This document shows, piece by piece, positions 10,045 to 31,179 of a stretch of DNA of 31,179 bases. The DNA is from a virus (Duplodnaviria > Heunggongvirae > Uroviricota > Caudoviricetes). The position numbers and the translations under genes are program-made. Below the pieces are notes generated by a model. That model had not been told where the DNA came from. It searched no databases and worked only from the letters and a program-made list of their open reading frames with translations. Every line of letters starts with the position of its first letter. The stretch's first letter is position 1. Location of the stretch: IMG/VR virus record IMGVR_UViG_2579779052_000007. One strand, 5' to 3'.

Positions 10045-10057
10045 TTATCTGTATCCT

Positions 10058-10134: not shown

Positions 10135-10149
10135 CACTTATTTTCCCTG

Positions 10150-10172: not shown

Positions 10173-10178
10173 AAATGT

Positions 10179-12962: not shown

Positions 12963-12985
12963 GGAAGAACAGGAGAGCAAAACAG

Positions 12986-13453
12986 ATGCTTAAGACAAAC
13001 AGCCTCCGGAAGGGCATGATTCATGGGTGTCGCTGGTGTCAGGCCAACCCGGAAAAATTCACCATTTTCGTGGAGAGCGGCAACATTGAAACGACCGGAG
13101 AAACGCCCTCGTTTGTTTACCGCTATCAGATGGTGATGTTTGTCATGGATTACGCCGGGGAGCTGGACGACCTCACGCTGCCGCTACTGGCGTGGTTATC
13201 CGAAAATCAGCCGCAATTGTTGCTTAATCCGGAGCGTAATCAGGACATCAAATTCTCCGCCGTTATCAATGACGATGACAGCGCCGATCTCCTGTTTACG
13301 CTCCCTCTGCGGGAACGCGTTCGCATCACGCGCAGCAGTCAGGGGGCACCGCAGGCAGAACACCTGCAGGAGCCAAAACCCCGTCTGCCATCTTCCGAAG
13401 GCGACTGGTCGCATGTATTCCAGGATGTGACGTGGGGTGAAAGCGATGGATAA
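12986..13453 (+). CDS. R: P2 gpR-like tail completion protein
   Basis: 155 aa, the same length as P2 R, with recognisable similarity (LLAWL.ENQP segment); precedes an S-like gene. Confidence 0.65.
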   Translation: MLKTNSLRKGMIHGCRWCQANPEKFTIFVESGNIETTGETPSFVYRYQMVMFVMDYAGELDDLTLPLLAWLSENQPQLLLNPERNQDIKFSAVINDDDSADLLFTLPLRERVRITRSSQGAPQAEHLQEPKPRLPSSEGDWSHVFQDVTWGESDG

Positions 13454-14081
13454 GGCATTCACCCGCGTGGATGAAACCTTTGAGGCTATCCGCGACAGCC
13501 TGAATCAGCAGGCCATCAATAACATCGCCAGAAAGCTGGCACAGGATTTACGCCGCGCCCAGCAGGCGCGTATCCGGTCACAGAAAGCGCCGGACGGGAC
13601 CGCGTGGACACCACGCAGACGCCGCGTAACCCGGATACAGGAGCGCATTCGCTTTATCTGGAATAACGAAGCACGCACGCTGAAAAACTGGCATCACGAC
13701 ACGGGGAAATACGGGCGAACCATTACCGGGTGGGATGAGGATAAAAACAATATCCGCACGTTTTACCGGGATGACATCGACCGCTTTCTGGAAATACGCA
13801 CCCGGCGCATCAACCAGGACAGCACAAAGCGCGTCCCCATGTTCGTAAAACTGCGCACCGCCCGCTACCTGAAAGCCCGTGCAGATGCTTCCGGTGTGAC
13901 GGTGGGTTACAGCGGCGTGGCCGCACGTATTGCCCGCGTTCATCAGTTCGGTGAGCGCGATCAGGTTGCGCCGGGCATTTTCACCGATTACCCGGTACGT
14001 GAGCTGTTGGGCATCAGTCAGGCAGATGAACGCCTGATTTATAACACGGTGCTGGGCCGGATTGCGGAGGCTGTACGGTGA
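13446..14081 (+). CDS. S: P2 gpS-like tail completion / virion morphogenesis protein
   Basis: Overlaps the R stop and the V start (GTGA); start is either ATG 13446 or GTG 13437. Confidence 0.65.
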   Translation: MDKAFTRVDETFEAIRDSLNQQAINNIARKLAQDLRRAQQARIRSQKAPDGTAWTPRRRRVTRIQERIRFIWNNEARTLKNWHHDTGKYGRTITGWDEDKNNIRTFYRDDIDRFLEIRTRRINQDSTKRVPMFVKLRTARYLKARADASGVTVGYSGVAARIARVHQFGERDQVAPGIFTDYPVRELLGISQADERLIYNTVLGRIAEAVR

Positions 14082-14659
14082 GCGCAGAACTCATGCGACT
14101 GCTGAGCAACATCATCCGCACTGGGATCATCTCTGAAGTTGATGAGAAGTCCTGGTGCGTGCGCGTTCGCAGCGGCGAACTGGAAACAGGCTGGTTGCGC
14201 TGGAACACCACGCGCGCGGGAGCCTTCAATGTGTGGCTGCCGCCATCACCCGGCGAACAGGTGGTAATTGCCTGCATTGGCGGCAACCCGGAAACCGCCA
14301 TGATAATTGGCAGCCTGTGGAGTGATGCCAATCCGGCCCCCGGCAAAAGCCTGAAAGAAATCGTGGTCAGCGCGCCGGATGGCGCGGTGTTCCGCTACGA
14401 CGCGGACGCAGGCGCACTGAGCGCCAGCGGCATGAAAACGGCCACCCTGCAGGCATCCGTCAGTGTGACACTGGACACGCCCGTCGTGGAATGCACAGAC
14501 CTTCTGAGAACGGCGACGCTTGACGTCACAAAAGGGGGAAAGATGAGCGGCAATATCACGCACAGCGGCGGCAATTTCACCTCAAACGGCATCACAGTGC
14601 ATACGCATAAACACGGTGGCGTGAAAGGTGGCAGCGATTCGACAGGAGGCCCGCAGTGA
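14078..14659 (+). CDS. V: Baseplate spike protein, P2 gpV-like
   Basis: GTG start overlapping the S stop; GGAGG RBS; glycine-rich C-terminus typical of gpV spikes. Confidence 0.8.
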   Translation: MSAELMRLLSNIIRTGIISEVDEKSWCVRVRSGELETGWLRWNTTRAGAFNVWLPPSPGEQVVIACIGGNPETAMIIGSLWSDANPAPGKSLKEIVVSAPDGAVFRYDADAGALSASGMKTATLQASVSVTLDTPVVECTDLLRTATLDVTKGGKMSGNITHSGGNFTSNGITVHTHKHGGVKGGSDSTGGPQ

Positions 14660-15006
14660 CAACCCGCTACACAGGAATGAACCCGGACGGAACGGGAAAC
14701 CTGAACGATATGGAGCATCTGAAACAGTCAGTCAGGGACATCCTGACCACCCCGCTGGCAAGCCGGGTTATGCGACGGGAATATGGCAGCCTTGTGCCCG
14801 ATTTAATTGACGAACCCATGAATAACACCACTCGTCTGCAATGCATGAGTGCTGCCGTGATTGCGCTGACACGATGGGAACCCCGCATTGCCCTGGACGC
14901 CATCGACGTTGTCTGGAAGGCAGGAGGCCGCGCCGGGGTGACGCTGTCGGGCACTGTCATGCAGACCATGCAGAATGTTGAATTAACCATCACGCTGAGG
15001 GAGTAA
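14656..15006 (+). CDS. W: Baseplate protein, P2 gpW-like (gp25 family)
   Basis: 116 aa; GTG start overlapping the V stop; AGGAGG RBS; P2 gene order. Confidence 0.8.
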   Translation: MTTRYTGMNPDGTGNLNDMEHLKQSVRDILTTPLASRVMRREYGSLVPDLIDEPMNNTTRLQCMSAAVIALTRWEPRIALDAIDVVWKAGGRAGVTLSGTVMQTMQNVELTITLRE

Positions 15007-15009
15007 ATC

Positions 15010-15906
15010 ATGCCTGCCGTTGACCTTTCCCAGTTACCGGAACCCGCCATCATCGCGGAGCCTGACTTTGAGGCAATTCTGGCTGACACAAAGGCCATGA
15101 TGATTGCGTCCTATCCTGTCGAACAGCGTGAAGCCGTCTCCGCCGCGCTGGAGCTGGAATCGGAACCCCTGAACGTTATCGCCCAGACAACAGCGTTTCG
15201 TGAAATGCTGTTACGCCAGCGGGTCAATGAGGGGGCACGCGCCTGCATGTTAAGCCACAGCGCCGGGACAGACCTGGACAACCTCGCGGGCAATATGAAC
15301 ACAAAGCGCCTGACCATCACTCCGGCAACGGATACCACCGACGCAGTGATGGAAAGTGACACCTCGCTGAGACTGCGGGCGCAGCGGGCGTACGATGGCC
15401 TGAGTGTTGCTGGCCCGTCAGGTGCATACGAGTATTTTGCCCGCAGCGCCAGCGGTCTGGTGCGTGATGCGCGGGCTATCAGTCCGTCTCCGGCAAATGT
15501 GACGGTTTCCATCCTGTCCACTGAAGGCGACGGCACAGCAACGGAGGCGTTGCTTAATACCGTTCGCGCCGTTCTGAATGCAGAGGATACCCGCCCGGTG
15601 GCCGACCGCCTGACGGTACAGAGCGCCAGAATCGTGACATGGCGGCTGAATGCAAAACTGTACTTTTACCCCGGCCCGGAATCCGAACCTATTCTGGCGG
15701 CGGCTGAATCGTCGTTCAGGAAGTGGCTGGCTGAGCAGGGGCTTATCGGTCAGGACGTGGCGTTGTCCGCCATTGCTGCCGCACTGCATGTGCACGGTGT
15801 GCAACGCGTGGAGATAATCGAACCCACACAGAATATGGCCATCAGCGACATACAGGCGGCGCGCTGTGAGTCGTTCACCATCAGCGAAGGTGGGCGCAAT
15901 GAGTAA
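15010..15906 (+). CDS. J: Baseplate assembly protein, P2 gpJ-like
   Basis: 298 aa; RBS GAGGGAG; P2 size and order. Confidence 0.85.
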   Translation: MPAVDLSQLPEPAIIAEPDFEAILADTKAMMIASYPVEQREAVSAALELESEPLNVIAQTTAFREMLLRQRVNEGARACMLSHSAGTDLDNLAGNMNTKRLTITPATDTTDAVMESDTSLRLRAQRAYDGLSVAGPSGAYEYFARSASGLVRDARAISPSPANVTVSILSTEGDGTATEALLNTVRAVLNAEDTRPVADRLTVQSARIVTWRLNAKLYFYPGPESEPILAAAESSFRKWLAEQGLIGQDVALSAIAAALHVHGVQRVEIIEPTQNMAISDIQAARCESFTISEGGRNE

Positions 15907-16429
15907 TTCACTGTTACCACCATCAGCCAGCAGTTTCATGCGTTGTGCCGAAGCTGTCGGAACGCGCATTACAGACATCCCGGTAGACCTCAACACGCTG
16001 TGGTCGCCGGACACCTGCCCGGTGCACCTGCTGCCTTATCTCGCCTGGGCATTTTCCGTTGACCGCTGGGATCGCAACTGGCCGGAAGAGACAAAACGAC
16101 AGGTGATTCGTGATGCATGGCTGATACACCGACACAAAGGGACCATCAGCGCACTGCGCAGGGCCATTGAGCCGCTGGGATACCTCATTCGCGTGTCTGA
16201 GTGGTGGGAGTTCGGCGGAGAACCGGGAACATTTACCGTTGAAGTCGGCACACTGGACAGTGGCGTGACGGAGGAAATGTATCTGGAAATGGAGCGGTTG
16301 ATTGCTGATGCCCGTCCGGTCAGCCGCCACATGACAGGGCTGAATATCATTCAGGAAATTCCGGGGGATATTTTTGCAGCGGCGGCAACTCATGACGGTG
16401 AAGTTATTACCATTTATCCGGACGATTAA
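15899..16429 (+). CDS. I: Baseplate/tail protein, P2 gpI-like
   Basis: 176 aa, the same length as P2 I; start overlaps the J stop (ATGAGTAA). Confidence 0.8.
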
Positions 16430-16431
16430 GC

Positions 16432-18564
16432 ATGAGTACCACAACACGAAAATTTAAAACCGTTATCACCGATACAGGTGCAAAAAAATTAGCTCAGGCA
16501 GCCGCGCCAGATGGTAAGCCTGTCCGCCTGACTCATATGGCCGTGGGCGACGGTGGCGGCGCGTTGCCCACACCAGACAGTAAGCAGACCCGTCTGGTGC
16601 ATGAGGTGTGGCGACACACTGTTAATCGCGTCATCCTGGACGCAACACATCAGAACCGCATTATTGCGGAGCTGGTTATTCCTCCAGAAACGGGCGGATT
16701 CTGGATCCGGGAAATTGGTGTGTTTGATGAGCACGGCGATTTAATCGCGGTGGGCAATACTGCCGAAAGTTACAAGCCAGCCGTTGCCGAAGGGTCCGGA
16801 CGTGCACAAACATTTCGCACCATTCTGACCGTATCCAGCACTGCCACTGTGGCGCTTACCGTGGATAACACCATGGTGATGGCCACAGTGGATTACGTGG
16901 ATAACAAACTGAAAGAGCATGAACAGTCACGATGTCACCCGGATGCCTCGCTGACCGCAAAAGGCTTTGTTCAACTCAGTAGCGCCACTAACAGCGATTC
17001 TGAAACGCTGGCTGCAACGCCGAAAGCGGTTAAGGTCGCGTATGATCTTGCTAACGGAAAATATACAGCGCAGGATGCCACAACAGCGCGAAAAGGCCTT
17101 GTCCAGCTTAGTAGTGCAACCAACAGTACATCTGAAACGCTGGCGGCAACATCAAATGCAGTAAAAGCTGCCTATGACAATGCTGAAAAACGTCTGCAGA
17201 AAGCTAAGAATGGTGAGGATATCTCTGATAAAGACACCTTTACGAAAAATATCGGTGCCTGCCGTGCATATAGTGCAGAGCTGAATATTGGTGGAGATAG
17301 TGAAGCATGGACAACTGCGCAGTTGATTTTTTGGCTAGAGAGTCAGGGGGCATTTAACCATCCTTACTGGATGTGCAAAGGCTCATGGGCTTATGCAAAT
17401 AATAAGGTCATTACAGATACAGGTTGCGGAAGTATTTGTCTTGCAGGTGCTGTTGTGGAAGTTATTGGCACCCGCGGCGCAATGACCATACGCATTACCA
17501 CACCGAGTACATCCAGCGGTGAAGGCATCCCTAATGCTCAATTTACTTATATTAATCATGGTGATGCTTATGCTCCTGGCTGGCGAAGGGACTATAACTC
17601 CAGGAATAAGCCAACAGCATCAGAGATCGGGGCGTTACCGTCAGATGGGACAGCAGTATCGTCAGTTAATCTGGCTTCAAAAGGTCGGCTGACCGCCCTG
17701 ACAGATAATATGCAGGGGGCCACAGGTCTGGAGTTATACGAGGCGTATAACAACGGATATCCAACAACGTATGGAAATATCATTCACCTGAAAGGGATGA
17801 CAGCCGTTGGCGAAGGCGAATTACTCATCGGCTGGAGTGGTATAAGCGGTGCTCATGCTCCGGCATTTATTCGTTCACGACGGGATACGACCGACGCAAA
17901 CTGGTCGCCGTGGGCGCAGCTTTACACCTCGGCTCATCCTCCTGAAGAGTTTTATCCAGTCGGTGCACCGATTCCGTGGCCATCAGATACCGTTCCGTCT
18001 GGTTATGCCCTGATGCAGGGGCAGACTTTTGACAAATCTGCATACCCGAAACTTGCAGTCGCTTATCCGTCAGGCGTTATTCCTGATATGCGTGGCTGGA
18101 CGATTAAGGGCAAGCCCGGCAGTGGTCGTGCCGTATTGTCTCAGGAACAGGACGGCATTAAATCGCACACCCACAGCGCCAGCGCATCCAGTACGGATTT
18201 GGGGACGAAAACCACATCGTCGTTTGATTACGGTACTAAAACGACCAGTTCATTTGATTACGGCACAAAAACTACGAATAGCGCTGGAAATCATTCACAC
18301 AATATACCTGTTGGTCACACTGGCGCGGGGAATGGTGTATCAGCCGGTTATAACGCTGCGTTAGGTACTGGTACCACGTCGAGCGCAGGCGAGCATGCTC
18401 ACAATGTATATATCGGTGCCCATAACCACACTATCGGCATTGGTGCTCATGCCCATTCTGTCATTATTGGTCCCCACGGACACACCATCACCGTTAACGC
18501 TACGGGTAACGAAGAAAACACCGTAAAAAACATCGCATTTAACTATATTGTGAGGCTTGCATAA
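16432..18564 (+). CDS. H: Tail fibre protein, P2 gpH-like
   Basis: 710 aa; conserved gpH-type N-terminus; repeat-rich, histidine-rich C-terminal receptor-binding region. Confidence 0.8.
18201..18282 (+). repeat. Tandem 30-nt coding repeats within the tail fibre gene ([10 protein letters not shown], about 2.7 copies)
   Basis: GGGGACGAAAACCACATCGTCGTTTGATTAC / GGTACTAAAACGACCAGTTCATTTGATTAC / GGCACAAAAACTACGAATAGC. Confidence 0.55.
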
Positions 18565-19142
18565 TGACATTCAGAATGAGTGAACACTCACGGACCATAA
18601 AAATTTATAATCTACTGACCGGAACCAATGAGTTTATTGGTGAAGGTGATGCATACATTCCACCTCATACAGGTCTGCCTGCAAACAGTACCGATATTGC
18701 CCCGCCAGATATTCCGGCTGGCTTCGTGGCCGTTTTCAACAGTGATGAGGCATCGTGGCATCTCGTTGAAGACCATCGGGGTAAAACGGTTTATGACGTG
18801 GCATCAGGGGACTCGTTATTTATTTCTGAACTCGGTCCATTACCGGAAAATGTTACCTGGTTGTCGCCGTATGGAGAGTATCAGAAGTGGAACGGCACAT
18901 CCTGGGTGAAAGATGCAGAAGCAGAAAAACTGTTTCGGATAAGGGAGGCGGAAGAAACAAAAAACAGCCTGATGCAGGTAGCCAGCGAGCATATTGCGCC
19001 ACTTCAGGATGCCGTAGATTTGGATATTGCAACGGAGGAAGAGGCATCGTTACTGGCTGCATGGAAGACATACCGGGTATTGTTGAATCGTGTTAATACA
19101 GCGGTAGCAGCGGATGTTGAGTGGCCAGTCGCCCCACAATAA
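18564..19142 (+). CDS. G: Tail fibre assembly protein, P2 gpG-like
   Basis: 192 aa; start overlaps the H stop (ATAATG); position immediately after the fibre gene. Confidence 0.8.
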
Positions 19143-19185
19143 AGAGAAAAAGCCATCGATTGAAATATAGATGGCTTTATGTACT

Positions 19186-19758
19186 CTATTTATACAATAC
19201 AACACCGCTCTTTTTAGTTATATATGTGCAGTTCGATGGTATATCTTTATTTATAAAAGACATTGCACCTATTTTTACATTATCCCCAATTTTACGTGAT
19301 AATCCAATGATGCAACAATTAGCTCCGATATCAACGTTACTACCAATTTTTACTCTTGAACCAGGCATGTCACCATCTATCTGTCCAATGGTAGTATTCT
19401 GTCGTAACACCAGATTTTCACCAGCATCAACAGCAAAATGAACAACAATTCCAGCATGATGGGGAATTGTTAACCCTTTTCCAATATTTGCGCCCAATCC
19501 AATTTCACAACCAAATTTGTTAATTATTTTACTGTTTAACTTTTTGGCTGCTTTCTTATGTAATTTATTACCATTAATATACATTTCGTTAGCCAACCGC
19601 CACCAGAAAAGGAAATTCCGGTTACGCTGTTTTTTCTCTCTTAAAAGCCTCCAGATATCCATACGTTTCCGCCGAATTACTTCATATTTCCAGAAGTTTT
19701 TTAAATTAGTAGAGTCCCCAAATAAAACAAAGTGAATTGCCATTAAGTAAGACAGCAC
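19186..19758 (-). CDS. Hexapeptide-repeat (left-handed beta-helix) acetyltransferase moron
   Basis: AT-rich gene on the opposite strand; repeated G.N..IG hexapeptide pattern; GTG start at 19758 with AAGGAG RBS preferred over the upstream track ATG. Confidence 0.7.
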   Translation of the reverse strand: MLSYLMAIHFVLFGDSTNLKNFWKYEVIRRKRMDIWRLLREKKQRNRNFLFWWRLANEMYINGNKLHKKAAKKLNSKIINKFGCEIGLGANIGKGLTIPHHAGIVVHFAVDAGENLVLRQNTTIGQIDGDMPGSRVKIGSNVDIGANCCIIGLSRKIGDNVKIGAMSFINKDIPSNCTYITKKSGVVLYK

Positions 19759-19914
19759 GATAATCTCCTTAATTATTATTTCAGACCACACATATTATAA
19801 GGTTAAGAGATTATAAAATCCTGTTGTTTGTTATTCAAAAACAATTTTCTGAGAAGGACATACAACAGCAAGTCGCCAGTCACCTTCATCAGGAAATTGG
19901 CGACATACGTTAAA

Positions 19915-20409
19915 TCAGAGCAGCCCCTTAACTGAGCTGGTCGCGCTATTAAGGGATGATGTCACCTTATCTTTGAAGCCGGACAACATATCGCTGAACG
20001 ATGAGGATTGCAGGCGCTCCCGCAAATCCTCATCACAGCGTTCAAGAGTCAGTGAAAATTCTATCTTTTTCGCCTTACCGTAGCGATCAAACTCGGAGCG
20101 GGTCGTATTCGTTTCGGTCAGGACATACATGCCGTAAATCTGCCCGACGCCATCAATCAGAGGCCAGGGCCGTCCTGTATACGCCTGCGTGGTCAGCAGA
20201 GACAGCGACACTTCGCCACCTGTAATTTCAGGATAAAGCACACCAGAAAGAACGATGCGATCATCACCTGCACCGATATACTGCCAGCTTGCTGAACGGT
20301 TAACGCGTTCATTTTTCACATGCCGCCAGCTTTTGTTTTGCTGTAACTGCTGATGCGGCAGCGTGCGCAGCTCAAAAACAAACATGCCATAGATCATCAT
20401 CATGGCCAT
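19915..20409 (-). CDS. U: Tail protein, P2 gpU-like
   Basis: 164 aa; immediately downstream of the tape-measure gene on the minus strand. Confidence 0.75.
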   Translation of the reverse strand: MAMMMIYGMFVFELRTLPHQQLQQNKSWRHVKNERVNRSASWQYIGAGDDRIVLSGVLYPEITGGEVSLSLLTTQAYTGRPWPLIDGVGQIYGMYVLTETNTTRSEFDRYGKAKKIEFSLTLERCDEDLRERLQSSSFSDMLSGFKDKVTSSLNSATSSVKGLL

Positions 20410-20415
20410 GACTCC

Positions 20416-23259
20416 TCAATCTTTATCGTAAAAACTGCCACGCCCGGCACGGGCGCGCCGTTCCATTTCTGCCCTGACCATTTCACCGACCAGTTTCGCC
20501 AGTTCGCGGGGATTCTGCGTAACAACGTTATGCAGATGAACATGAATTTCACCGCCAAATCTGGAGACAGCAGGCTCCCGATTACGGGAAGCTGCAGGAA
20601 CTGATGCCACTGGCGATCGTATGGCCTCCGCCACCGGGCGGGAGCTGGCCGCAACAACAGGGACCAGCGCCGGAGGCAGCGGAGCCGGGACTACGGGTGT
20701 GATATTAATTGCGGGGGCAGGCTTACTGACCTGCGCAATCTTCCGCTCCTGCCACTCCCCACGAACAGCAAGTGCGCGGGGCAGGTTCTTAAAGACAATA
20801 TCGCCAGGGCCAATGCGTTTTTTCGTCTCATCAACCAGCTTACCTGTGTTATCAGCAATTTTGCTGAGTCTGCGTAGCGTCCCGGTATTGCTGTCTGTGA
20901 GCGGTTTGTTGTCTTTGGGTTTATCACCTCCGGTGCCATTGCCATTTTCCACAGGCTTCGGCGGATTGATTTTCGCCAGGTCCCCCTGAAGTAAGGCAAC
21001 CTTATCCTGAAGAATGGCCGCACGCTGTGCGTCTTCGATTTTCTTGCGCGCCCTTTCCGCTTCATCCGGAAGGACGCCAAGTTTTTCAAGTATCCACGCC
21101 AGCGTATCCAGTAGCATTTTTGCAGGTGTCAGAACAAGTTGTAACGCACCGCCAAGAACGTTACCGAATATCTCGCCAGCACTGGTACATTTATCCAGCG
21201 TTTCCTTGCTGGACTCCATCGGTGACAGCAGCGATTTAAACCAGTTAAACACCTGGCTGATCCCGCTTCCGATTGCGTCAAAAACAGGGCCAAACCGTTC
21301 AAAGGTTTCACGCAACGGGTTCAGCCTTTCCATAATCCCGCTGAACACCCCGGCAAAAAATGCCCTGATGGGATCCCAGTATTTCCAGATAAGGACGGCA
21401 GCTCCGGCAAGCGCAGCCACGATAAGACCAACCGGACTGAACAGCGCCCCGATAGCGCCTCCCAGTAAAGAAACGGAACCCGTCACCATTCCCCATAGTG
21501 CTGGCAGGACCCTGACAGCATTCATTGATCCGGTCAGGAGAGAAAAACCAAGACGCAGTTTTGCCAGCGGACCAGCAAGCACACCAATAGCCAGCGACAA
21601 CGAGCCAACCGTTGCAGTCATTGCCAGCAACGCACCGCCTGCTATCAGTAGCTGGCGCGTCAGTGCCGGATGGGCCTGCGCCAGCGCCGTCACCCTTGAT
21701 ACCACCCGCGTGAGCCACTGCGTGACAGAACGCAGCGGACCGTCAATCAGATCTGCAATGCGGATGCGCAACCCTTCCCATGCACTGCCGAGTGATTTCA
21801 GATCGCCGTCAAGGTTGTTGGCCATAACCTTTGCTGTGCGTTCAGCCTCACCGCGCGCGCCTTCAAGTTCTTTTCTCAGTTTGGGTAAGGAACCGTCACC
21901 CACTGCATCAACGAGCGCCATAAACGATGTGAAAGCCTCTTCTCCGGCAATGTCCTTAAAGAACGATACCCGGTCAACTTCCCCGTATTTGCGGGTGGCT
22001 TTATAAAGGTCGGCCAGCACATCCTCCATCGGGCGCATTTTACCCCCGGCATCCGAGACGGACACGCCCAGCTCTTTCAGAGCTTCTGCCGCCGCCTTTG
22101 GCGGTGATGCCAGACGAGCCAGGCTGGCACGCATTGCCGTCCCGGCATCACTCCCTCTGATGCCCATATTCGCCAGCACACCAGCCATCGCTGCGGCCTG
22201 CTCCAGCGATATTCCCAGCTTACCCGCCACCGGACCTGCATATTTCATGGTTTCGCCCAGTGCGCGAAGGTCAGTGTTGGTACGGGTAAACGCTGCGGTG
22301 AGTGTGTCACCGACCCGGTCCATCTGGTCAGCAGAAAGGCCGAACTGCGTCAGGATATTTGAGCCAATATCTGCCGTCTCGCCGAGATCCATACCGCCAG
22401 CCGTTGCCATGCTCAGCACTCCGGGAAGCGCAGCCTGAATGGCCTGCGGTGTGAAGCCTGCCATTGCAAGAAATGCCTGCCCACTGGCGGCATCGCCTGC
22501 GGTGAACTGCGTTTCAGAGCCAAGTTTTAACGCCTGCTCACGCAGCGCCTTAAACTGCGGGCTGTTCTGGTCGATTCGCGTCAGCGCCTGAACGCGGGAC
22601 ATCTCTTTGCCGAACCCGATCGCGGGCTGCAAAAAACGCCCGGCAGCATAGCCGCCCGCCGCTGCCGCACCAATTGCCAGCGCACCACCTGTTTTCAGTT
22701 TTCCCGCGGTTTCCTGCGCGCGCGAATACCACTCACGCGCCCGCGTTACACGCGCAAGCGCCTGCCGTTCGCGTTCAAGCTGGTTGTTGTACTGTTCGGT
22801 GCGTCTGATGGCCTGCTGGATGGTGTTATCGCTGCCTGTCAGGGAAATGCCGTGGCGTTTCAGCTCTCCGCCAAGCTCCCGCATTTTCTGAATTTCCCGT
22901 GTGCGCGATTCATTCAGGCGTTCAAGCCGGGTGCTTAACTGCTGCATCAGCTTTTGTTGTTTTTCGCTGAGCACTGTACCCGTGCGTTGTAACTGATTAA
23001 GGGCGTTAAGCTGGCGTCGTGCTTTCACGATACCCGCATCCGCTTTACTGACAGCGTCGCGGGCGCGCTCAAATGAACGAGCCTGACGCTCGAGATTTTT
23101 AATCGCCCCCTGCGTTCGCTGGATGGAGTCACCAAACTGCCCCATCAGGCGGCGGGCGTTTTCGGCAGGCCGGGTCAGCCTGTCAACGGCGCTGAAAGCG
23201 ACCCGGATATCAAGAGTCTTCATTGTCTGCATTCCCGCTGCGAAGTGCCGCCCGCTCAC
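20416..23259 (-). CDS. T: Tail tape measure protein, P2 gpT-like
   Basis: Long alpha-helical, Gly/Ala-rich protein; true start probably at one of the internal ATGs at 23232 or 23223. Confidence 0.8.
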   Translation of the reverse strand: MSGRHFAAGMQTMKTLDIRVAFSAVDRLTRPAENARRLMGQFGDSIQRTQGAIKNLERQARSFERARDAVSKADAGIVKARRQLNALNQLQRTGTVLSEKQQKLMQQLSTRLERLNESRTREIQKMRELGGELKRHGISLTGSDNTIQQAIRRTEQYNNQLERERQALARVTRAREWYSRAQETAGKLKTGGALAIGAAAAGGYAAGRFLQPAIGFGKEMSRVQALTRIDQNSPQFKALREQALKLGSETQFTAGDAASGQAFLAMAGFTPQAIQAALPGVLSMATAGGMDLGETADIGSNILTQFGLSADQMDRVGDTLTAAFTRTNTDLRALGETMKYAGPVAGKLGISLEQAAAMAGVLANMGIRGSDAGTAMRASLARLASPPKAAAEALKELGVSVSDAGGKMRPMEDVLADLYKATRKYGEVDRVSFFKDIAGEEAFTSFMALVDAVGDGSLPKLRKELEGARGEAERTAKVMANNLDGDLKSLGSAWEGLRIRIADLIDGPLRSVTQWLTRVVSRVTALAQAHPALTRQLLIAGGALLAMTATVGSLSLAIGVLAGPLAKLRLGFSLLTGSMNAVRVLPALWGMVTGSVSLLGGAIGALFSPVGLIVAALAGAAVLIWKYWDPIRAFFAGVFSGIMERLNPLRETFERFGPVFDAIGSGISQVFNWFKSLLSPMESSKETLDKCTSAGEIFGNVLGGALQLVLTPAKMLLDTLAWILEKLGVLPDEAERARKKIEDAQRAAILQDKVALLQGDLAKINPPKPVENGNGTGGDKPKDNKPLTDSNTGTLRRLSKIADNTGKLVDETKKRIGPGDIVFKNLPRALAVRGEWQERKIAQVSKPAPAINITPVVPAPLPPALVPVVAASSRPVAEAIRSPVASVPAASRNREPAVSRFGGEIHVHLHNVVTQNPRELAKLVGEMVRAEMERRARAGRGSFYDKD

Positions 23260-23424
23260 GCCAGCTAACCACTTCGCCGGGCGTCATCATGAAGATTTCG
23301 GCGGGCGACCAGTTAAAAATAACGGCAATATCTGCCACAAAGTCTTCTATGTGCTCAAAGCACACAACCGTGATCAGGCTTCCGTCGCCTGTTCGTTCTT
23401 CCCGCCAGAGTCCGCACCGCTCAA
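23210..23424 (-). CDS. E': E' extension reached by programmed -1 frameshift (gives the E+E' fusion)
   Basis: The -1 frame opens directly after the minus-strand heptamer and continues ERCGLWREERTGDG...WSPAEIFMMTPGEVVSWRERAAL to a stop at 23210-23212. Confidence 0.6.
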
Positions 23425-23739
23425 AAAATTTACGGCAACCACACATAACTGAATAAAGTCACGGGATGCCATTTTTTTGATCGTCACTTCATCCAGTCGC
23501 GGTGATGTCACGCGTGACAGCAACGTAAACATGGATTCCGCTTTCAGATTCAGCACATCAGACAGCGACAAATCTCGCAGAGATCCAGCCTGCTCAATAG
23601 CCCCGGTGATCTCCACATACGTGATTTTTTCGCCGCCTCGCTCAATTGGTTGGGTAAGTTTTACACCACGCTCACTGGTTTCTTTCACAGTGTCAGCAAC
23701 TACCGTGTTTTCGGTATCGATGTTTTTCGTCTCTTTCAT
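23374..23739 (-). CDS. E: Tail assembly chaperone, P2 gpE-like
   Basis: 121-aa ORF between the tube and tape-measure genes; contains the T TTT TTG slippery heptamer near its 3' end. Confidence 0.7.
   Translation of the reverse strand: MKETKNIDTENTVVADTVKETSERGVKLTQPIERGGEKITYVEITGAIEQAGSLRDLSLSDVLNLKAESMFTLLSRVTSPRLDEVTIKKMASRDFIQLCVVAVNFLSGADSGGKNEQATEA
23422..23428 (-). other. Slippery heptamer T TTT TTG for the E/E' -1 frameshift
   Basis: Plus-strand CAAAAAA at 23422-23428; in the E frame the minus strand reads AAT TTT TTG. Confidence 0.6.
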
Positions 23740-23793
23740 CAGGAAACTCCTTTCAGTCAGAGGCGACGCACTGCGCCGCCTGCATATTACTTA

Positions 23794-24306
23794 TCAGCCA
23801 AGCCCGAGCGCGGAACGGATGCGATCGGGCACAATGTCCTTGCCGTCCTTCCGGTAAATGAAGTTCAGCAGGTCAATCTCCCACAACGGGCGATCGTTAA
23901 CACTCAGCTTGTAGTAGGTGTTTTTAATGGCGTAAGTGTGTGATGTGGCTTCGCCCTGTTTGGCTTCCCCCATATCAATTTCCGTCACACGTCCGCGCAT
24001 TTCGACTTCATACAGGTCGCTTTCTGCATCGGTGTAATATTCACCCGCAAAACGCAGCAGCGTGCCGTCAATCGTGCCGCCATACTTAAGGAACAGCTCA
24101 CGAACTGCGCCCCCCATGACAAAGCTCGCATCAAGCGCGGAGTCGTCCAGACCGAGATCAATACTTACCGCACCCATCATGCCACCACCCCGGTAGCTGT
24201 CGGTTTTGCGCGTCAGCTTAGGCAGAGTGACGGACGTCACCTTACCCACTTCGTTTTCACCATCCACAAACAGCGTAAAAAAGCGAAGATGTTTTGGTAC
24301 AGCCAT
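23794..24306 (-). CDS. FII: Tail tube protein, P2 gpFII-like
   Basis: 170 aa; directly follows the sheath gene with overlapping start and stop. Confidence 0.85.
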   Translation of the reverse strand: MAVPKHLRFFTLFVDGENEVGKVTSVTLPKLTRKTDSYRGGGMMGAVSIDLGLDDSALDASFVMGGAVRELFLKYGGTIDGTLLRFAGEYYTDAESDLYEVEMRGRVTEIDMGEAKQGEATSHTYAIKNTYYKLSVNDRPLWEIDLLNFIYRKDGKDIVPDRIRSALGLG

Positions 24307-25490
24307 CAGGCACCTCCCAGCACCGCAAATGCGGGTTCAAAGTATTCATCAGTAAACGTCTGGTAAAGCTCCATGTCTTCCAGTGGCGGAACGGGCGTAT
24401 ATTTGTAGCGAATACGCACACGCCCCTGACGTAAATCCGTGGTGCTGTTATCCACCACGTCATACCAGCACTCCGCGCCAATCAGTTTCCCGGCAGTAAC
24501 CAGCGAATCCAGTTTTGCCCTGATGGCACTGATAACATCCTTCACGTTCGCAGGCGTCAGTGGACTGTCGATGGTTTCAAACTGCGCTTCCGCAATTGAA
24601 TCAGCCAGCACCTGTGCGGTTCGGGTATACACCTCAAAGATGTAGGCGTTCGTTTCCGGTGTGCGGTTGCCCCAGAAGCGGAACCCGTTGCGACGAATAA
24701 TGGTCGTGATTTCTTTGTTGTTGAGGCTGTTGGCATCACTGTCTTCGGCCTGCAACGACCAGAAAACATGCCTGGACATCCCCAGCACATTTTTAACAGG
24801 AACGTTGGACAGCGATTTGTGCCAGCCCTGCTCATGGTCAATGTACGCACGAAGGCCGCACGCATAGGCAGGCGCGGGGAACGTTTCGTTTTTGCCACTT
24901 TTCGGGTTGTAGGCGATGAAGTCCGGCCATAAGAGCATCACCTCACGTTCGTTGAATTTCTGGCGGTAGGTAATTGCCTCAGCCATCGTGTTACAGTCAT
25001 GACATGAGGCATACACAAACGCGCGCAGTTTACCCGCAATCACGCACAGGGATTTTGTCACCGCCTCCGTGTCCAGCTCCGGCGCGGCCAGAATACGCGG
25101 ACGGTATCCGATGCTTTCATCCTGCTCTGCAACAAGCAGCGCATACATCCCCGTATAGCTGCCGTCAGATTCAGAACCACCGATAACCAGTTGATCCTGC
25201 GTCTTACCGCCTTCTTCTTTGTGTTCAGCCACGCGAACGACGATCACTTTTGTGCTCACCTGGTCTGCAATAGCCTTAAGCGCACGATAAAGCGTCCCCG
25301 TAGTCCCGCATTTTCCCAGCACGTCATTGACGCGGGTCAGCAGTGTGGGCTTGTTCAGCGGGAACAGCTCCGCGTCCGCATCATCCGCCGTTGCCACGAT
25401 ACCGATAACACTGGAATCAACATCATTAATCGCTGTTACCAGGTCGGTACTTTCCGTAACACGGGCACCATGAAAACGAGTTTCACTCAT
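24306..25490 (-). CDS. FI: Contractile tail sheath protein, P2 gpFI-like
   Basis: 394 aa (P2 FI is about 396); conserved sheath-like C-terminus. Confidence 0.85.
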   Translation of the reverse strand: MSETRFHGARVTESTDLVTAINDVDSSVIGIVATADDADAELFPLNKPTLLTRVNDVLGKCGTTGTLYRALKAIADQVSTKVIVVRVAEHKEEGGKTQDQLVIGGSESDGSYTGMYALLVAEQDESIGYRPRILAAPELDTEAVTKSLCVIAGKLRAFVYASCHDCNTMAEAITYRQKFNEREVMLLWPDFIAYNPKSGKNETFPAPAYACGLRAYIDHEQGWHKSLSNVPVKNVLGMSRHVFWSLQAEDSDANSLNNKEITTIIRRNGFRFWGNRTPETNAYIFEVYTRTAQVLADSIAEAQFETIDSPLTPANVKDVISAIRAKLDSLVTAGKLIGAECWYDVVDNSTTDLRQGRVRIRYKYTPVPPLEDMELYQTFTDEYFEPAFAVLGGA

Positions 25491-25647
25491 AGCTTCAGCC
25501 CCTTGTATCCGTTAAATGATTCGGCAACAATCATCACCCACCACGCGCGTAATCTCACCCCTGCGCCGTTCTCCCGCCACGGCGACAACAAAAAGCAGTA
25601 ACCCCCTATGCACGCACATGCGACCATGCCGCACAGGGAGGGAACAG

Positions 25648-26748
25648 ATGACCGATACCACCATGCAATTGCTCAGTCAGAGCACAGACCCCGTGAAAAT
25701 GCCGGATTTTGATATTCTCGCGGAGGGGGAAACACTGTCCGGCGTGGCAGAGCGCCTGATGAGCCTGTCACTGACCGACAACCGGGGATTTGAAGCGGAC
25801 CTGCTCACCATCACGCTGGATGATGCGGATGGTCAGTTGCAGCTACCGCCACGGGGCGCGCGCCTGACGGTTCTCATTGGCTGGAAAGGAGAACCGCTGA
25901 CAGAAAAAGGCACTTACATTGTTGATGAAATCGCTCACGAAGGACCGCCGGACAGGCTGACTGTTTCAGCCAGAAGCGCAGATTTTCGGGATGAATTTAA
26001 CGTTAAACGTGAGGTGTCCTGGCATGATGTGACCGTTGAGCGCGTGGTATCCGCCATCGCTCATCGGTACGGTCTGAAACCACAAATCAGCGAAATGCTG
26101 ATGGATATTGAAATCGACCACGCCGACCAGACCGAAGAAAGCGACATGTCCTTCCTTACGCGCATGGCGGAAATGCTGGGCGCAATCACTACGGTAAAAA
26201 GCAGTAATCTGTTATTCATCATGCCAGGCGGTGGCGTGAACGCACAGGGCCAGCCGTTGCCATCGTTCGCCATCACGCGCAGCAGTGGCGATCGCCATCA
26301 GTTCCGCATTGCTGACCGCGAAGCGTATACGGGGGTACGTGCTTACTGGCTTGATCTTAATTACGGGAAAAAGAAAAAAGTCAGCGTGAAACGCCGCAAA
26401 CCGAAAAAGGAGAAAAGCAGCAGCCGTGAAGGTGACTATATGGAAGGTGCGGAAGGCAACGTGTTTGTGTTACGCAAGACTTATCAGAACGAGCAGGCAG
26501 CAAGACGTGCAGCGGCGGCAAAGTGGCAGCAGCTACAACGCGGAGCCGCATCATTCTCCATCACGCTGGCGCGTGGACGCGCAGAACTCTATCCCGAAAT
26601 GCATGGCACGGTGACAGGCTTCAAAAGTGACATCGATAATCAGGACTGGATTATTGCAAAAGCCGAGCACACCATTGATAACAGCGGCTTTACCACACAG
26701 CTTGAGCTTGAAGCAAAAATCCCGGAATGGATAGCAGAAACAGAATGA
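25648..26748 (+). CDS. D: Tail protein, P2 gpD-like
   Basis: GGGAGGG RBS before the ATG at 25648 (the track ORF extends to 25516); about 366 aa; lies upstream of ogr. Confidence 0.75.
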   Translation: MTDTTMQLLSQSTDPVKMPDFDILAEGETLSGVAERLMSLSLTDNRGFEADLLTITLDDADGQLQLPPRGARLTVLIGWKGEPLTEKGTYIVDEIAHEGPPDRLTVSARSADFRDEFNVKREVSWHDVTVERVVSAIAHRYGLKPQISEMLMDIEIDHADQTEESDMSFLTRMAEMLGAITTVKSSNLLFIMPGGGVNAQGQPLPSFAITRSSGDRHQFRIADREAYTGVRAYWLDLNYGKKKKVSVKRRKPKKEKSSSREGDYMEGAEGNVFVLRKTYQNEQAARRAAAAKWQQLQRGAASFSITLARGRAELYPEMHGTVTGFKSDIDNQDWIIAKAEHTIDNSGFTTQLELEAKIPEWIAETE

Positions 26749-27162
26749 GCAAATTAGATGTATTGACTCAAACCAGAACTGACACACTCACAGCACAGTG
26801 CCAGACCCAATCTGGCAGCCCGCTTTGTGCCTAGAGCAGGTGTTGCTTATGTAACAGTTAATCCACGGATAGTGGTCATGAATGCTGGTTGAAGTTGTAT
26901 TGCCATGAGTGGTCAATTAGGGACTCACTTATTATCGCGTGCTCACCATTGATGGGTAAGATCATGCATTTCGGCTACTGTACTTCGCGAATCCTCCGCA
27001 CACAGGCAACACCTGATTTAAGAACAGAGGGAGATGATGACGCAAGGAAGATTTATTATCGTGCATGTGGCAGATGATCTTTTAGCTGCCGGAGTGATAA
27101 ATTACACCTATTTTCGATAAGTGTTTTTGTTATAGAACATTAATTTCGTGGGAAACAATAAA

Positions 27163-28287
27163 GTGAAATTAGGAAGAAATGATAAGTGCTGGTGTAATTC
27201 AGGACTTAAGTATAAAAAGTGCCATCTTGGTCGAGATCGTGAAACTCCGGTATCCAAAGCCGAGGCACTGAAATTTTCAAAGTCTCTCTCGCAGAGAAAG
27301 GCATGTTATGCGCCAGCATCCATGCACGAAGATTGTGATAAACGCATCGTTCAGGCGCATACGATATCTAAGAGCAGTAGCCTTAAGGCGATCGCCGACT
27401 CCAGCAATCACGTCATGGGGGTGATAATGAACTTAGCAAGCCTGATGAGAAACAACGGAAAATGGCTTCCCGAGAAGATCGGTATCAATCAGGCATCCAC
27501 TTTTACAGGATTTTGTGCAGTTCATGACAGAATCTTATTTTCATGCCTAGAGAACGAAAAATTTACAGGCACGGACGAGCAGTGCTTTGCCTTAATGTTT
27601 CGTTCATTGTCTAAAGAAATTTATGCCAAAGAAGGGGGAGTGCTATCTTCTGATTTTGCTAAAAATGCCGATAAAGGAAAGCTACAAGTTGAACAGTATT
27701 ATATTCAGAAATTAATCGACCAGCACCAAAGTGGCTTAAATGCAGCAATAATTGAATTAAATAATCTTAAAACTAGCCTCGACCGCATCCTACTTAGCAG
27801 GCAATTTTCAGAAATTGAAAGTGTTATCTTCACTTTTGCAGAGCCTTTACCAATTGTAGTTTCGTCAATTCTTTCACCGGAGAGGGATTTCGATGGGACC
27901 AAAATTCAGGATTTGAGCGATCTTACAGTGTCGGCGGAACAAGTATGTTTCAATGCTTTTTCCTGCGGAGGTAAGGGATATGTAGTGTTCAGTTGGCTGA
28001 GAACTTCAACAATTATCAGACGTTTTATACGGACACTAATTAAGATCCCAGCTAACAGGATGTTCAATACCCTTCTGTATTTTTTCTTCACAAAGGCCGA
28101 AAATACATATTCATCCCCTGAGTGGTGGGACAGGCTCAGTGATAAACAGCGAGAGAATATCGGCAACATGATTATGTCAGGGGTTGAATTTTTTGGCATA
28201 CCTACATCACAGGTTGATCATTCCGTTGATTATAACGCCGCTGCACTTGAAGAGATAACATGCAGCAACAACGAAATTTGCAGCTGA
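27163..28287 (+). CDS. SEC-C-motif protein of unknown function (AT-rich moron between D and ogr)
   Basis: N-terminal KLGRNDKCWCNSGLKYKKCH resembles the SecA C-terminal zinc motif; start must be a GTG (27163, or 27148 as in the track) because the first in-frame ATG lies after the motif. Confidence 0.5.
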   Translation: MKLGRNDKCWCNSGLKYKKCHLGRDRETPVSKAEALKFSKSLSQRKACYAPASMHEDCDKRIVQAHTISKSSSLKAIADSSNHVMGVIMNLASLMRNNGKWLPEKIGINQASTFTGFCAVHDRILFSCLENEKFTGTDEQCFALMFRSLSKEIYAKEGGVLSSDFAKNADKGKLQVEQYYIQKLIDQHQSGLNAAIIELNNLKTSLDRILLSRQFSEIESVIFTFAEPLPIVVSSILSPERDFDGTKIQDLSDLTVSAEQVCFNAFSCGGKGYVVFSWLRTSTIIRRFIRTLIKIPANRMFNTLLYFFFTKAENTYSSPEWWDRLSDKQRENIGNMIMSGVEFFGIPTSQVDHSVDYNAAALEEITCSNNEICS

Positions 28288-28576
28288 ATGTTTACATGCT
28301 GTTAGAAAAAGCGGGCTGAACAATCATTTCGGGATTGTAACAGATAAGATGGCACTGCCCGCTTGCTTCCCGATATGCACCTCAGCCAATAAACTTATGT
28401 AAGCAACCGATTTCCATTTATGCGGAGGTTATCAAAGTTGTTGGAGTTGCGAACTTCCGCTCTTCGCACAAAGCGTACCGCTAGGTTTGATTGTATTCTG
28501 GCTGCGCAAACTGTCAGTTGGAGTCTGAGCTATTACAACTTAGAATAGCGGCAGCACCACGTTAAGGGAGGTCGCT

Positions 28577-28837
28577 ATGTTCCGTTGTCCGCTTTGTGGC
28601 GCATCTGCCCGAATCCGCACCAGTCGTCCGGAAAACGATTCAAACACTGTGCGGCAAAAGTATTACCAGTGTAACAACCTGGAATGCGGCGTATGCTTCT
28701 CAACACTGGAAGCTTTCCATAAATTCACATCAAAACACGCCTCCGGCGTTCACTCTTCGGAAGGTATCCCGTGGCATGAGCTGCCAGCTTCACACAGGGG
28801 AAACAATCAGATGAGTTTGCCTTTACCTCAGAATTAA
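28577..28837 (+). CDS. ogr: Ogr/Delta-family zinc-finger late transcription activator
   Basis: MFRCPLCGASARIRTSR...YYQCNNLECG: four-Cys zinc finger and overall similarity to P2 Ogr; AAGGGAGG RBS. Confidence 0.8.
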   Translation: MFRCPLCGASARIRTSRPENDSNTVRQKYYQCNNLECGVCFSTLEAFHKFTSKHASGVHSSEGIPWHELPASHRGNNQMSLPLPQN

Positions 28838-29026
28838 CAGGCAGAATTGCCGGAGTAACAAAAAAACGATAGATTACCCGCGGGTGCCTTTCGGCTGATG
28901 GTCGGAGGAATACCCGAAGGCCGGATGTGGAAAGGCCCCGGAAAACATTTCTGTTTAACCGAGGCCCTAACATATCTACCTTAAGCAAGTGATAGGTTAG
29001 CGCCTCTCCAACAAAGGAGCAAGCGC

Positions 29027-29167
29027 TATGTCGCAAAAATCGCTTACAGCCATCACGTTCTGCGTGACGGTAATCCTCATCATCTGGATGCTACACGGTT
29101 CGCTGTGTGAAATACGGATGAGCTTCTGGGGAGCGGAGTTTGCGGCGTTCTTACAGTGTAAGCAGTA
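29027..29167 (+). CDS. Hok-family type I toxin (HokA-like); below the ORF-track size cutoff
   Basis: 46-aa translation MSQKSLTAITFCVTVILIIWMLHGSLCEIRMSFWGAEFAAFLQCKQ has a single transmembrane helix and the SLCE...AAFL signature; AGGAG RBS 8 nt upstream. Confidence 0.6.
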
Positions 29168-29256
29168 AGGAAACCGCGACGGGGGAGCAATCCCCCGTCA
29201 ATCGGTTGCTAAGGTTGGCTGAAGTGGCACCCTATCTCACAGACATGAACAACAAA

Positions 29257-29288
29257 CCCGCAGCGTAAGAACTGCGGGTTTTCTTTTT
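29257..29288 (+). terminator. Rho-independent terminator downstream of the hokA-like gene, possibly bidirectional
   Basis: CCCGCAG-loop-CTGCGGG hairpin followed by TTTTCTTTTT; an A-rich run precedes it. Confidence 0.5.
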
Positions 29289-29356
29289 GGAACAATCACT
29301 AGCTAGTGTACCGTTAACGGCACATAATGCTCGCACAACAAACCTGTTAAAAGAGA

Positions 29357-29638
29357 TTACTCAGCATTCTCCTGCTTCCATTGCCGGATCATTTCATCGG
29401 TAACATCACCCTCATAACATACCACGTCATACCCTCCATTACGGCTATATGCACTGCGTCCACCACATCTACTACCATTCCTTGCATGATTATAAGGACA
29501 CGCACAATTGCCTGGATAAGATTCAATGGATTCTTTAATTATTTCTTTTTTGATCTGAGCATCAGACTTTCCTGTTGCTGCATATCCACTAAAAGATACT
29601 AAACAAAGGCAGATTGCCATTAATAAACCACATCGCAT
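29357..29638 (-). CDS. Small Cys-containing protein with predicted signal peptide, hypothetical
   Basis: AT-rich ORF; from the internal ATG at 29638 the product begins MRCGLLMAICLCLVSFSGYAA (signal-peptide-like); weak RBS. Confidence 0.3.
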   Translation of the reverse strand: MRCGLLMAICLCLVSFSGYAATGKSDAQIKKEIIKESIESYPGNCACPYNHARNGSRCGGRSAYSRNGGYDVVCYEGDVTDEMIRQWKQENAE

Positions 29639-30110
29639 ACCGATACACTCTATTACTAACCAATCATAGCCCACATCATAAAATCGAGATGAGGAGTACA
29701 ATACCTTTAACAAGAAGGTGTCATAACGATAATATGTCGTGCAATTCATCAAAAAAAAGATCTATATCAAAGAGATAGAAGTCTTATCAGCGCTTCAGAC
29801 ATCGGCATTCGAGGCAGCAGAAAAACAGTAAATCTGACGAATTTGCCTTTTCCCAAGATGTTGTCAGATTAAAAAGATAGATTAGCGCAGGTACCTGTTG
29901 GTGGATTGCAGGAGGAAAAATGAAGTCGAGTGAAAAAATCCCAGAAAAATTTTTGTTTAACAGAGGTCCTGGTTCACTATGCGAAATACGGAGGAGCTGC
30001 AGAAGAATTCTGCTTCATCCTTAGAGTTTAAACAGCACGTGCACTACCATTGTTTCTGCATATCGCCACACCATCGCCACTCTACCGCCATTGCACAAAA
30101 TACAAATAAC

Positions 30111-30134
30111 AAAAAACCCCCCCGAAGGTGGTTT
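30111..30134 (-). terminator. Probable terminator of the glyW-cysT-leuZ tRNA operon
   Basis: On the minus strand a C/G hairpin (CCACCTTCGGGGGGG) is followed by a T-run, immediately downstream of the leuZ 3' end. Confidence 0.4.
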
Positions 30135-30177
30135 CACGACACTGCTTATTGCTTTGATTTTATTCTTATCTTTCCCA

Positions 30178-30264
30178 TGGTACCCGGAGCGGGACTTGAA
30201 CCCGCACAGCGCGAACGCCGAGGGATTTTAAATCCCTTGTGTCTACCGATTCCACCATCCGGGC
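30178..30264 (-). tRNA. leuZ: tRNA-Leu (anticodon UAA)
   Basis: 87-nt class II tRNA; reverse complement GCCCGGATGGTGGAATCGGTAGACACAAGGGATTTAAAATCCC...GGTACCA. Confidence 0.85.
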
Positions 30265-30276
30265 TCGGGAAGAAAG

Positions 30277-30350
30277 TGGAGGCGCGTTCCGGAGTCGAAC
30301 CGGACTAGACGGATTTGCAATCCGCTACATAACCGCTTTGTTAACGCGCC
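30277..30350 (-). tRNA. cysT: tRNA-Cys (anticodon GCA)
   Basis: 74 nt; reverse complement GGCGCGTTAACAAAGCGGTTATGTAGCGGATTGCAAATCCGTC...CTCCA. Confidence 0.85.
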
Positions 30351-30403
30351 AAATTCTTCAGGCCTTTCAGCCAGACATCCGCTGACGCCGATGCCTTTTA
30401 AAC

Positions 30404-30479
<76 letters not shown>

Positions 30480-30630
30480 ATTCATCAAGCAATCAGTTAA
30501 TCACTTGATTTTATTATCGTCTGGCAATCAGTGCCGCCGTTCGATGCGTTGCATTCTACTTACCTGGCGCGATGAGTCAACGATATTTTTCACCACTTTT
30601 GATCGTTTGCTGAAAATTGCGCCGAAACGA

Positions 30631-31179
30631 TCACTGATCAAGCAAATCTGCACGCGCAGCGCTCAAATATTGCAACATTGACCACAGAGTCAGTACCGCA
30701 GCCACAAAGAAAAGTGCAATACCGGCGTACTCAACCCAAATGTTCGGACGCCACAGCAGCCAGGCCAACGCCACCATCTGGGCAGTGGTTTTCACTTTCC
30801 CAATCCAGGAGACAGCCACGCTACTGCGTTTACCCAACTCCGCCATCCATTCGCGTAGCGCAGAAATAATAATTTCACGGGCGATCATCGTTGCCGCCGG
30901 TAAGGTCACCCACCAGCTGTGGTAATGCTCGGTTACCAGCACCATGGCGATAGCCACGAGAACTTTATCTGCTACAGGGTCAAGGAAAGCACCAAACCGG
31001 GTACTCTGGTTCCAGCGGCGTGCCAGAAAACCATCGAACCAGTCAGTCACCGCCGCGACGCAGAAAATGAGCGCGGCGGCAAACGGCGACCAGGTGACAG
31101 GCAGATAAAAGACCAATACAAAGAATGGGATAAGGATGACACGGAACAGTGTAAGCAACGTAGGGATATTAAATTGCAT
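30631..31179 (-). CDS. pgsA: CDP-diacylglycerol--glycerol-3-phosphate 3-phosphatidyltransferase
   Basis: 182-aa membrane protein with the CDP-alcohol phosphatidyltransferase motif (DGFLAR...G...D...AD); start codon at the window edge; pgsA-glyW-cysT-leuZ synteny as in E. coli. Confidence 0.9.

Follow-up and report, generated by a model that had tools for sequence, protein, structure and literature searches.

Phage integrases of the 186/HP1 type tend toward tRNA genes, where long core sequences keep the tRNA intact, and have an arm-site consensus of the GCCAC type, tgccGCCActt (PMC3448106). HP1 integrates into a tRNA-Leu gene (PMC3448106, citing Hauser & Scocca 1992), and phage 186, at tRNA-Ile, has a long identity block that restores the tRNA gene on insertion, whereas P2 itself integrates outside tRNA genes, with a short core and arm repeats of the TGTGGACA type (PMC3448106). 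In E. coli, leuZ is listed as a site of prophages or integrative elements in STEC O121:H19 and O145:H28 (PMC8767318, PMC7067040). In experiments, Sp13, the sole prophage of P2-like type in O157 Sakai, excised and formed circles (PMC2669165).

The locus that we compared with these systems lies at the right end of the window, by which we mean the whole stretch of 31,179 nt analysed; coordinates refer to it unless another sequence is named. The gene order at this end is that of the E. coli leuZ–cysT–glyW–pgsA locus, and from ogr rightward the genes and gene remnants are as follows:

28577-28837, plus strand: ogr/Delta-type zinc-finger late activator (PF04606 Ogr_Delta, 52.4 bits, cut-off 26.3)
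28882-29038, plus strand: hok mRNA leader or sok-like region (RF01794, sok, 46.7 bits, E 9.6e-9, gathering score 59)
29028-29168, plus strand: intact Hok/Gef toxin gene, 46 aa (PF01848, 30.1 bits, cut-off 22)
29254-29281, plus strand: terminator-like hairpin closing the hok module (terminator scan)
29357-29638, minus strand: 93-aa ORF, cysteine-rich and with a signal-peptide-like N terminus (phrog_27544, function unknown, 193.7 bits)
29871-29998, plus strand: decayed, internally deleted second hok locus (73% identity over 106 nt to 28863-28968, E 7e-9)
30178-30264, minus strand: tRNA-Leu(taa), that is leuZ, tRNA-Leu(UAA) (ARAGORN; Rfam tRNA, 57.7 bits)
30277-30479, minus strand: cysT and glyW, tRNA-Cys and tRNA-Gly, host context (ARAGORN)
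30631-31179, minus strand: pgsA, host context (ORF list and annotation of matching genomes)

The leuZ gene is intact and aligns to that of K-12 without a difference. The ogr ORF also matches phrog_603 and is annotated as ogr/Delta-like in strain SMN152SH1; it is the last conserved P2-type gene before attP and, with the SMN152SH1 annotation taken into account, stands downstream of the P2-type tail genes FI, FII, E, T, U and D. For the 379-aa ORF at 27148-28287, Pfam, NCBIfam and PADLOC yielded a SEC-C motif only. The original prediction had placed ogr about 1.3 kb from the 3' end of leuZ and had described the interval as hok-like, AT-rich and lacking housekeeping genes. This description holds: the distance from the ogr stop to the leuZ 3' end is 1341 bp, the interval carries the Hok/Gef gene, and its GC content is 0.43-0.44 as against at least 0.51 in the flanking core. 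The uninterrupted locus also agreed with it. In K-12, where the site is empty, yecA is followed by a spacer of 195 bp and then by leuZ–cysT–glyW–pgsA, and none of the window sequence 28838-30108 is found at this yecA–leuZ site. The part from the tRNA genes to pgsA was matched by all 5426 complete E. coli genomes searched, and most of them, K-12 included, match from position 30109 onward only.

Position 30109 is the left limit of a 124-bp block, set by BLAST and by alignment of the window with SMN152SH1, that consists of 69 bp from downstream of leuZ, including the terminator hairpin, and the 3' 55 nt of leuZ. Coordinates prefixed L001 are those of the SMN152SH1 sequence. The features of the att region are:

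30064-30092, plus strand: three YCGCCA repeats at 11-bp spacing, putative arm-type Int sites of the attP left arm
30109-30232, no strand assigned: att identity block, attR copy (124 bp; 98.4% identical to the attL copy, L001 6984-7107)
30226-30232, no strand assigned: anticodon loop (7 nt) at the edge of the block, candidate region of strand exchange (divergence of attL and attR)

The attL sequence parts from attR directly past ...GAGGGATTTTAAA, at the edge of the anticodon loop. In the alignment of attB, attL and attR, the phage-borne copy of the leuZ downstream region (30109-30177, minus strand) shows a variant terminator hairpin, CCCCCCC versus CCACCC, and this variant was not detected by the terminator scan. 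The RNA fold computed for 30100-30270 contained a long-range structure and no tRNA cloverleaf and was left unused.

The number of block copies follows the state of the site. K-12 has one copy, SMN152SH1 and two further genomes (L006 and L014) have two each, bracketing the inserted DNA, and a contig in the excised or circular form has one, in the attP arrangement. The window likewise holds one copy: its 55-nt leuZ part occurs a single time, with none expected in shuffled sequences, and a second block is absent throughout the 31,179 nt. Across 5425 complete E. coli genomes we counted ~1680 block copies above one per genome, showing that the leuZ site is heavily used, and single genomes hold up to four copies, such that tandem occupancy exists.

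The occupied form of the site is represented by SMN152SH1, which is collinear with window positions 11288-31179 at 98% identity and carries a complete P2-like prophage between yecA and leuZ, with int beside yecA and with ogr and hok beside leuZ. On its yecA side, the K-12 spacer and the leuZ 3' part run up to ...GAGGGATTTTAAA and are followed by phage sequence and int. For the excised form, we scanned a viral contig collection with a gapped pattern requiring phage-specific sequence on both sides of the block. The scan returned one contig, IMG/VR UViG_2548876853_000002 (34,888 bp), matching window 17889-26758, window 28536-30232 and L001 6984-10904, in which the tail genes, D, ogr, hok and the arm, a single block, int and the early genes follow one another contiguously. 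This excised attP arrangement identifies 28838-30232 as phage DNA and sets the right boundary of the prophage at 30232, inside leuZ. An exact-pattern scan of species-representative genomes for the attL/attP junction gave no matches. The record NC_049344 ("Escherichia phage 520873"), considered as a source of free-phage attP, begins inside yecA and ends in hok; it is thus a prophage cut-out and was rejected as attP evidence. The vB_EcoM-...R records probably share this defect, as their block lies 793 bp from the record start, the distance that separates it from the yecA start in SMN152SH1.

With these sequences at hand, the att repeat that was suspected of overlapping the tRNA end can be recognized in the 124-bp direct repeat that takes in the 3' 55 nt of leuZ, and its partner copy, found in related genomes, adjoins yecA beside int. 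Integration at leuZ is likewise retained from the original prediction, but the notion that the prophage merely abuts the tRNA gene is not: the prophage extends 55 nt into leuZ, to position 30232.

The integrase gene lies outside the window and was studied in the SMN152SH1 prophage. Its product of 333 aa matches phrog_1 integrase at 259 bits, and over residues 165-331 it aligns to 1AIH, the structure of the catalytic domain of HP1 integrase, with an E value of 1.7e-74. The likeness to HP1 extends to the attachment site. In the annotated HP1 attP (NC_001697, 251-694), a whole tRNA-Lys gene is accompanied by a 3' fragment of tRNA-Leu(UAA), which terminates toward int with the identical GAGGGATTTTAAA, and attP is again located beside int. 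The strand-exchange points of HP1 have reportedly been mapped and lie in the anticodon loop. In HP1 attP the YCGCCA motif occurs six times, in several cases as pairs spaced 11 bp apart, and in the present phage it is found at window positions 30064, 30075 and 30086 and once on the int-side arm (L001 7204). These four occurrences in the attP arms compare with 0.32 expected (fraction at or above the observed count, 0.0005), and the repeats in the window are putative arm-type Int binding sites, judged by their sequence. Both phages belong to the Peduoviridae. They differ in host and target context, in the block, which comprises the whole tRNA-Lys gene in HP1 and the 69-bp leuZ terminator region here, and in the late genes, which in the present phage are of P2/Xuanwuvirus type with ogr and the hok cargo. 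With P2, the present phage shares the order D–ogr–attP–int in the excised form; it differs in having an HP1/186-type int/att module and, between ogr and the core, ~1.3 kb occupied by cargo and arm.

Blocks of the same kind are found in phages of unrelated types. The lambdoid phages mEp390 and Fostie and the Pectobacterium phage ZF40 carry the leuZ block in attP, in mEp390 annotated as putative attP, and in each it is a tRNA-Leu 3' block reaching to the anticodon loop. The 27 nt next to the loop are invariant among them, whereas elsewhere their blocks differ from the host, including paired changes in the T-stem; unlike in the present phage, int is located across on the other side of the block. 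The parallel with HP1 and the 27 nt that stay invariant in unrelated phages suggest a strand exchange at or near the anticodon loop. Polymorphisms exclude a crossover within the leftmost ~15 bp of the block, and this is the resolution that they allow.

On this evidence we are highly confident that 28838-30232 forms the right end of a prophage of P2-like type (Peduoviridae, Xuanwuvirus-like), which entered leuZ through site-specific recombination by a tyrosine integrase of the HP1 type. Directly observed were the repeat, the number of its copies in the empty, occupied and excised forms, the unbroken attP and the integrase homology: repeats bracket the element in the relatives, the empty and excised forms have a single copy, and an intact tRNA gene is regenerated. 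The attP carries a 124-bp copy of host sequence, namely the leuZ 3' 55 nt from the anticodon loop and 69 bp with the terminator, and its strand exchange with attB, modelled on HP1, would take place most probably within the 7-nt anticodon loop. At the resulting attR, the 5' 32 nt of the host leuZ would be joined to the phage-borne 3' half and terminator, leaving the tRNA gene intact, while at attL, to judge from related genomes, the displaced host 3' fragment would remain by yecA beside int. The DNA between ogr and the block, with the hok locus, the small secreted ORF, the decayed hok and the attP arm, is that of the phage. If the crossover took place at the anticodon loop, the 3' 55 nt of leuZ are phage-derived and the 5' 32 nt are those of the host.

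The cargo of the interval resembles a hok/sok type I toxin–antitoxin locus in its Hok/Gef ORF, in a putative leader that resembles the sok and hok mRNA region, and in the terminator behind. The Hok/Gef gene also matches phrog_251 (MokW-like) at 82.8 bits. The cargo departs from hok/sok in that the Rfam score for sok is below the gathering score and in that the second copy is internally deleted. This second copy, which also shows 86% identity over 28 nt to the hok coding region and retains a remnant ORF (29920-30024) bearing SLCEIR, cannot encode Hok. The 93-aa ORF on the opposite strand is annotated as hypothetical (WP_001303543.1), and searches of Pfam, NCBIfam and PADLOC gave nothing usable for it. 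In strain PSS-08-2, hok is followed by different cargo, a zinc-ribbon gene and a TagO-like gene, up to the final ~340 bp of the arm, indicating that the slot between hok and the arm end is variable. Sp13 (CP-933T) of O157:H7 agrees with the present prophage in locus, in integrase and in the right arm, which from 29306 on is 99.2% identical; O157:H7 genomes contain this int at 99.4%, and their leuZ site holds the remnant of a P2-like prophage. An IS30-associated deletion has removed D', ogr and hok from the O157 copy, whereas the copy in the window retains ogr and hok and has its left half replaced by lambdoid DNA.

Some features of the interval could be read as placing the prophage end elsewhere. 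The ogr and hok module (28537-29288) is common to the Xuanwuvirus phages P88 and Chuche at 96-97% identity, and the similarity to these and other P2-like phages stops at ~29288, at the hok terminator. The prophage might then end just past this terminator, at ~29290, and 29290-30108 be an independent island of greater age or what is left of a previous insertion; the decayed hok copy looks like debris, and IS-mediated deletions in O157:H7 and L006 have spared part of the segment. We regard this as extremely improbable, as the excised contig has the segment contiguous between hok and the single block, followed by int, K-12, with its empty site, lacks the segment, no repeat of host sequence is found at ~29290, and the arm segment 29289-30108 is about as frequent as the integrase (618 of the 5426 genomes, versus 599 for the int region L001 7108-8300). 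The stop at 29288 fits the pattern that exchange of att–int modules between P2-like phages would produce. A different assignment of the block, to a lambdoid phage of the mEp390 type residing in tandem with the P2-like prophage and providing the left part of the window, draws on the leuZ block in the attP of mEp390 and Fostie and on the genomes with up to four copies. It too is very unlikely: the mEp390 and Fostie blocks, besides having int on the opposite side, are 88% identical to the window copy (~12% different), which agrees at 98-100% with the P2-like copies; the lambdoid part has its closest full-length relative at serU, with a different integrase; and no second block occurs in the window.

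The left ~12.5 kb of the window are lambdoid and join the P2-like late genes within an esterase gene that both prophage types have. Window positions 1-12947 match lambdoid prophages, with Q, a DNA methylase, three tRNAs and a SASA/DUF6645 esterase, and the P2-like match covers 11288-31179; identity with the lambdoid copy is complete over 11163-11827 and with the P2-like copy from ~12528 onward, and the switch falls within the 3' part of the esterase gene. The source contig has Pfam matches to P2 GpR, S, V, W, J, I and U and to the tape-measure protein, but a complete P2-type genome with int, the C/cox switch, replication and head genes, as present in relatives such as SMN152SH1, is absent from the window, whose left part is lambdoid. 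The window starts 2 bases from the beginning of a draft contig (GCA_000627435.1 JJLU01000069.1, 98,662 bp), making the partner attL and int unreadable in the source record. Recombination in the esterase gene between a lambdoid prophage and the P2-like prophage at leuZ may have split attR from attL and int and left an element incapable of excision, and we give this orphaning of attR a chance that is close to even. As we read its orientation, the serU relative is placed such that an inversion with the leuZ prophage would yield the exact order observed, and inversions between prophages have been reported in STEC (PMC8767318); the join could have originated in an inversion of ~55 kb. On the other side, the source is a draft assembly, the switch lies in ~400 bp that are nearly identical in the two prophage types, where short reads may be misjoined, the lambdoid/P2 junction is spanned in none of the 5426 complete E. 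coli genomes, and the hybrid esterase protein (11109-12962) is on record from one draft contig only. An inversion between prophages at serU and leuZ and a misjoin in the draft assembly are equally possible, and we lean somewhat against the join being a real recombination of a serU-type lambdoid prophage with the P2-like prophage at leuZ through their shared nanS-p-like esterase gene. In the source strain, the partner att copy, which the original prediction had put beyond the left edge of the window, may not simply be located upstream, and the element may be a rearranged remnant that is unable to excise.

As an integration site leuZ is already known, and so is the mechanism; with a known kind of integrase and the standard restoration of the tRNA gene, the finding is correct but ordinary and leaves the current understanding unchanged. 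What it improves is chiefly annotation. [quoted passage not shown] Prophages of the O157 Sp13 type use an HP1-type integrase, which targets the same tRNA-Leu anticodon stem-loop sequence as HP1. If the lambdoid–P2 join is real, attR would be stranded from attL and int, and the element would be a fixed hybrid prophage with the tRNA 3' half and terminator permanently phage-derived. In lysogens at this site, the working 3' half of leuZ and its terminator would come from the phage.

The P2-like part of the window carries several open reading frames of accessory character, and those nearest to attP lie in a stretch whose content differs between prophages. The features concerned, in window coordinates, are as follows.

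Features of the window
1 to about 12.5 kb: lambdoid genes (YdaT, replication genes, QueH, hok gene, RusA, Q, DNA methylase, three tRNAs, esterase)
about 5463-5675: Hok/Gef gene of the lambdoid part
9885-10134: tRNA-Met, tRNA-Arg(tcg) and tRNA-Arg(tct) genes of the lambdoid part
19186-19791 (-): low-GC (about 0.38) ORF flanked by the tail-fibre assembly gene and gpU
27148-28287 (+): 379-aa ORF of low GC (about 0.41) between gene D and ogr
29357-29638 (-): cysteine-rich 93-aa ORF with a signal-peptide-like start (phrog_27544)
29871-29998 (+): second hok locus, internally deleted and decayed, bordering the attP arm repeats on their left

The 93-aa ORF is kept across leuZ prophages, but in the P2-like prophage of one comparison E. 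coli genome (NZ_AP027679.1, 2614-3844) its place between hok and the final ~340 bp of the arm is taken by two others, one coding for a zinc-ribbon protein and one, "TagO", associated with type VI secretion. The stretch is thus a variable cargo slot adjoining attP. As the second hok locus is decayed and internally deleted, the phage arm also holds the remains of an earlier hok cargo. The lambdoid part adds a Hok/Gef gene of its own (PF01848 match on the source contig), so that the hok-type loci in the window number three.

Cargo is found elsewhere in the P2-like part. The 379-aa ORF is missing from the excised-form IMG/VR contig carrying attP and is therefore a cargo insertion; its sole recognisable feature is an N-terminal SEC-C motif, NCBI labels it "YecA family" and PADLOC gave no convincing match for it. 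The ORF beside gpU, whose annotation in E. coli SMN152SH1 is a serine acetyltransferase with a frameshift, is cargo too, in the slot occupied by Z/fun in P2.

In strain NDM2 (NZ_CP083886.1, 1805-17753), identical 124-bp att repeats flank a 16-kb island where ogr, hok and the arm are all that remains of the prophage. The island also contains a type I restriction subunit, a DUF262 protein, PD-(D/E)XK nucleases, a TIR-domain protein, a group II intron and IS elements, and no integrase is annotated between the two repeats. This arm variant occurs in about 213 genomes at 90-95% identity.

Window positions 1-12947 match lambdoid sequence, the junction falling at about 12528-12947, and Q and the methylase lie upstream of the three tRNA genes. 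The fusion point is within a SASA/DUF6645 esterase gene common to both phage types, after which P2-like tail genes follow. The left edge of the window lies at one end of a draft contig (JJLU01000069.1), and the fusion reflects either true prophage–prophage recombination or misassembly.

The unrelated temperate phages mEp390, Fostie and ZF40 also have this leuZ 3' block in attP, and their int lies on the opposite side of the block from that of the P2-like leuZ prophage. The copies of mEp390 and Fostie carry paired G-to-T and G-to-A changes that preserve the T stem, a pattern suggesting that the tRNA is under selection to stay functional once the phage has integrated.
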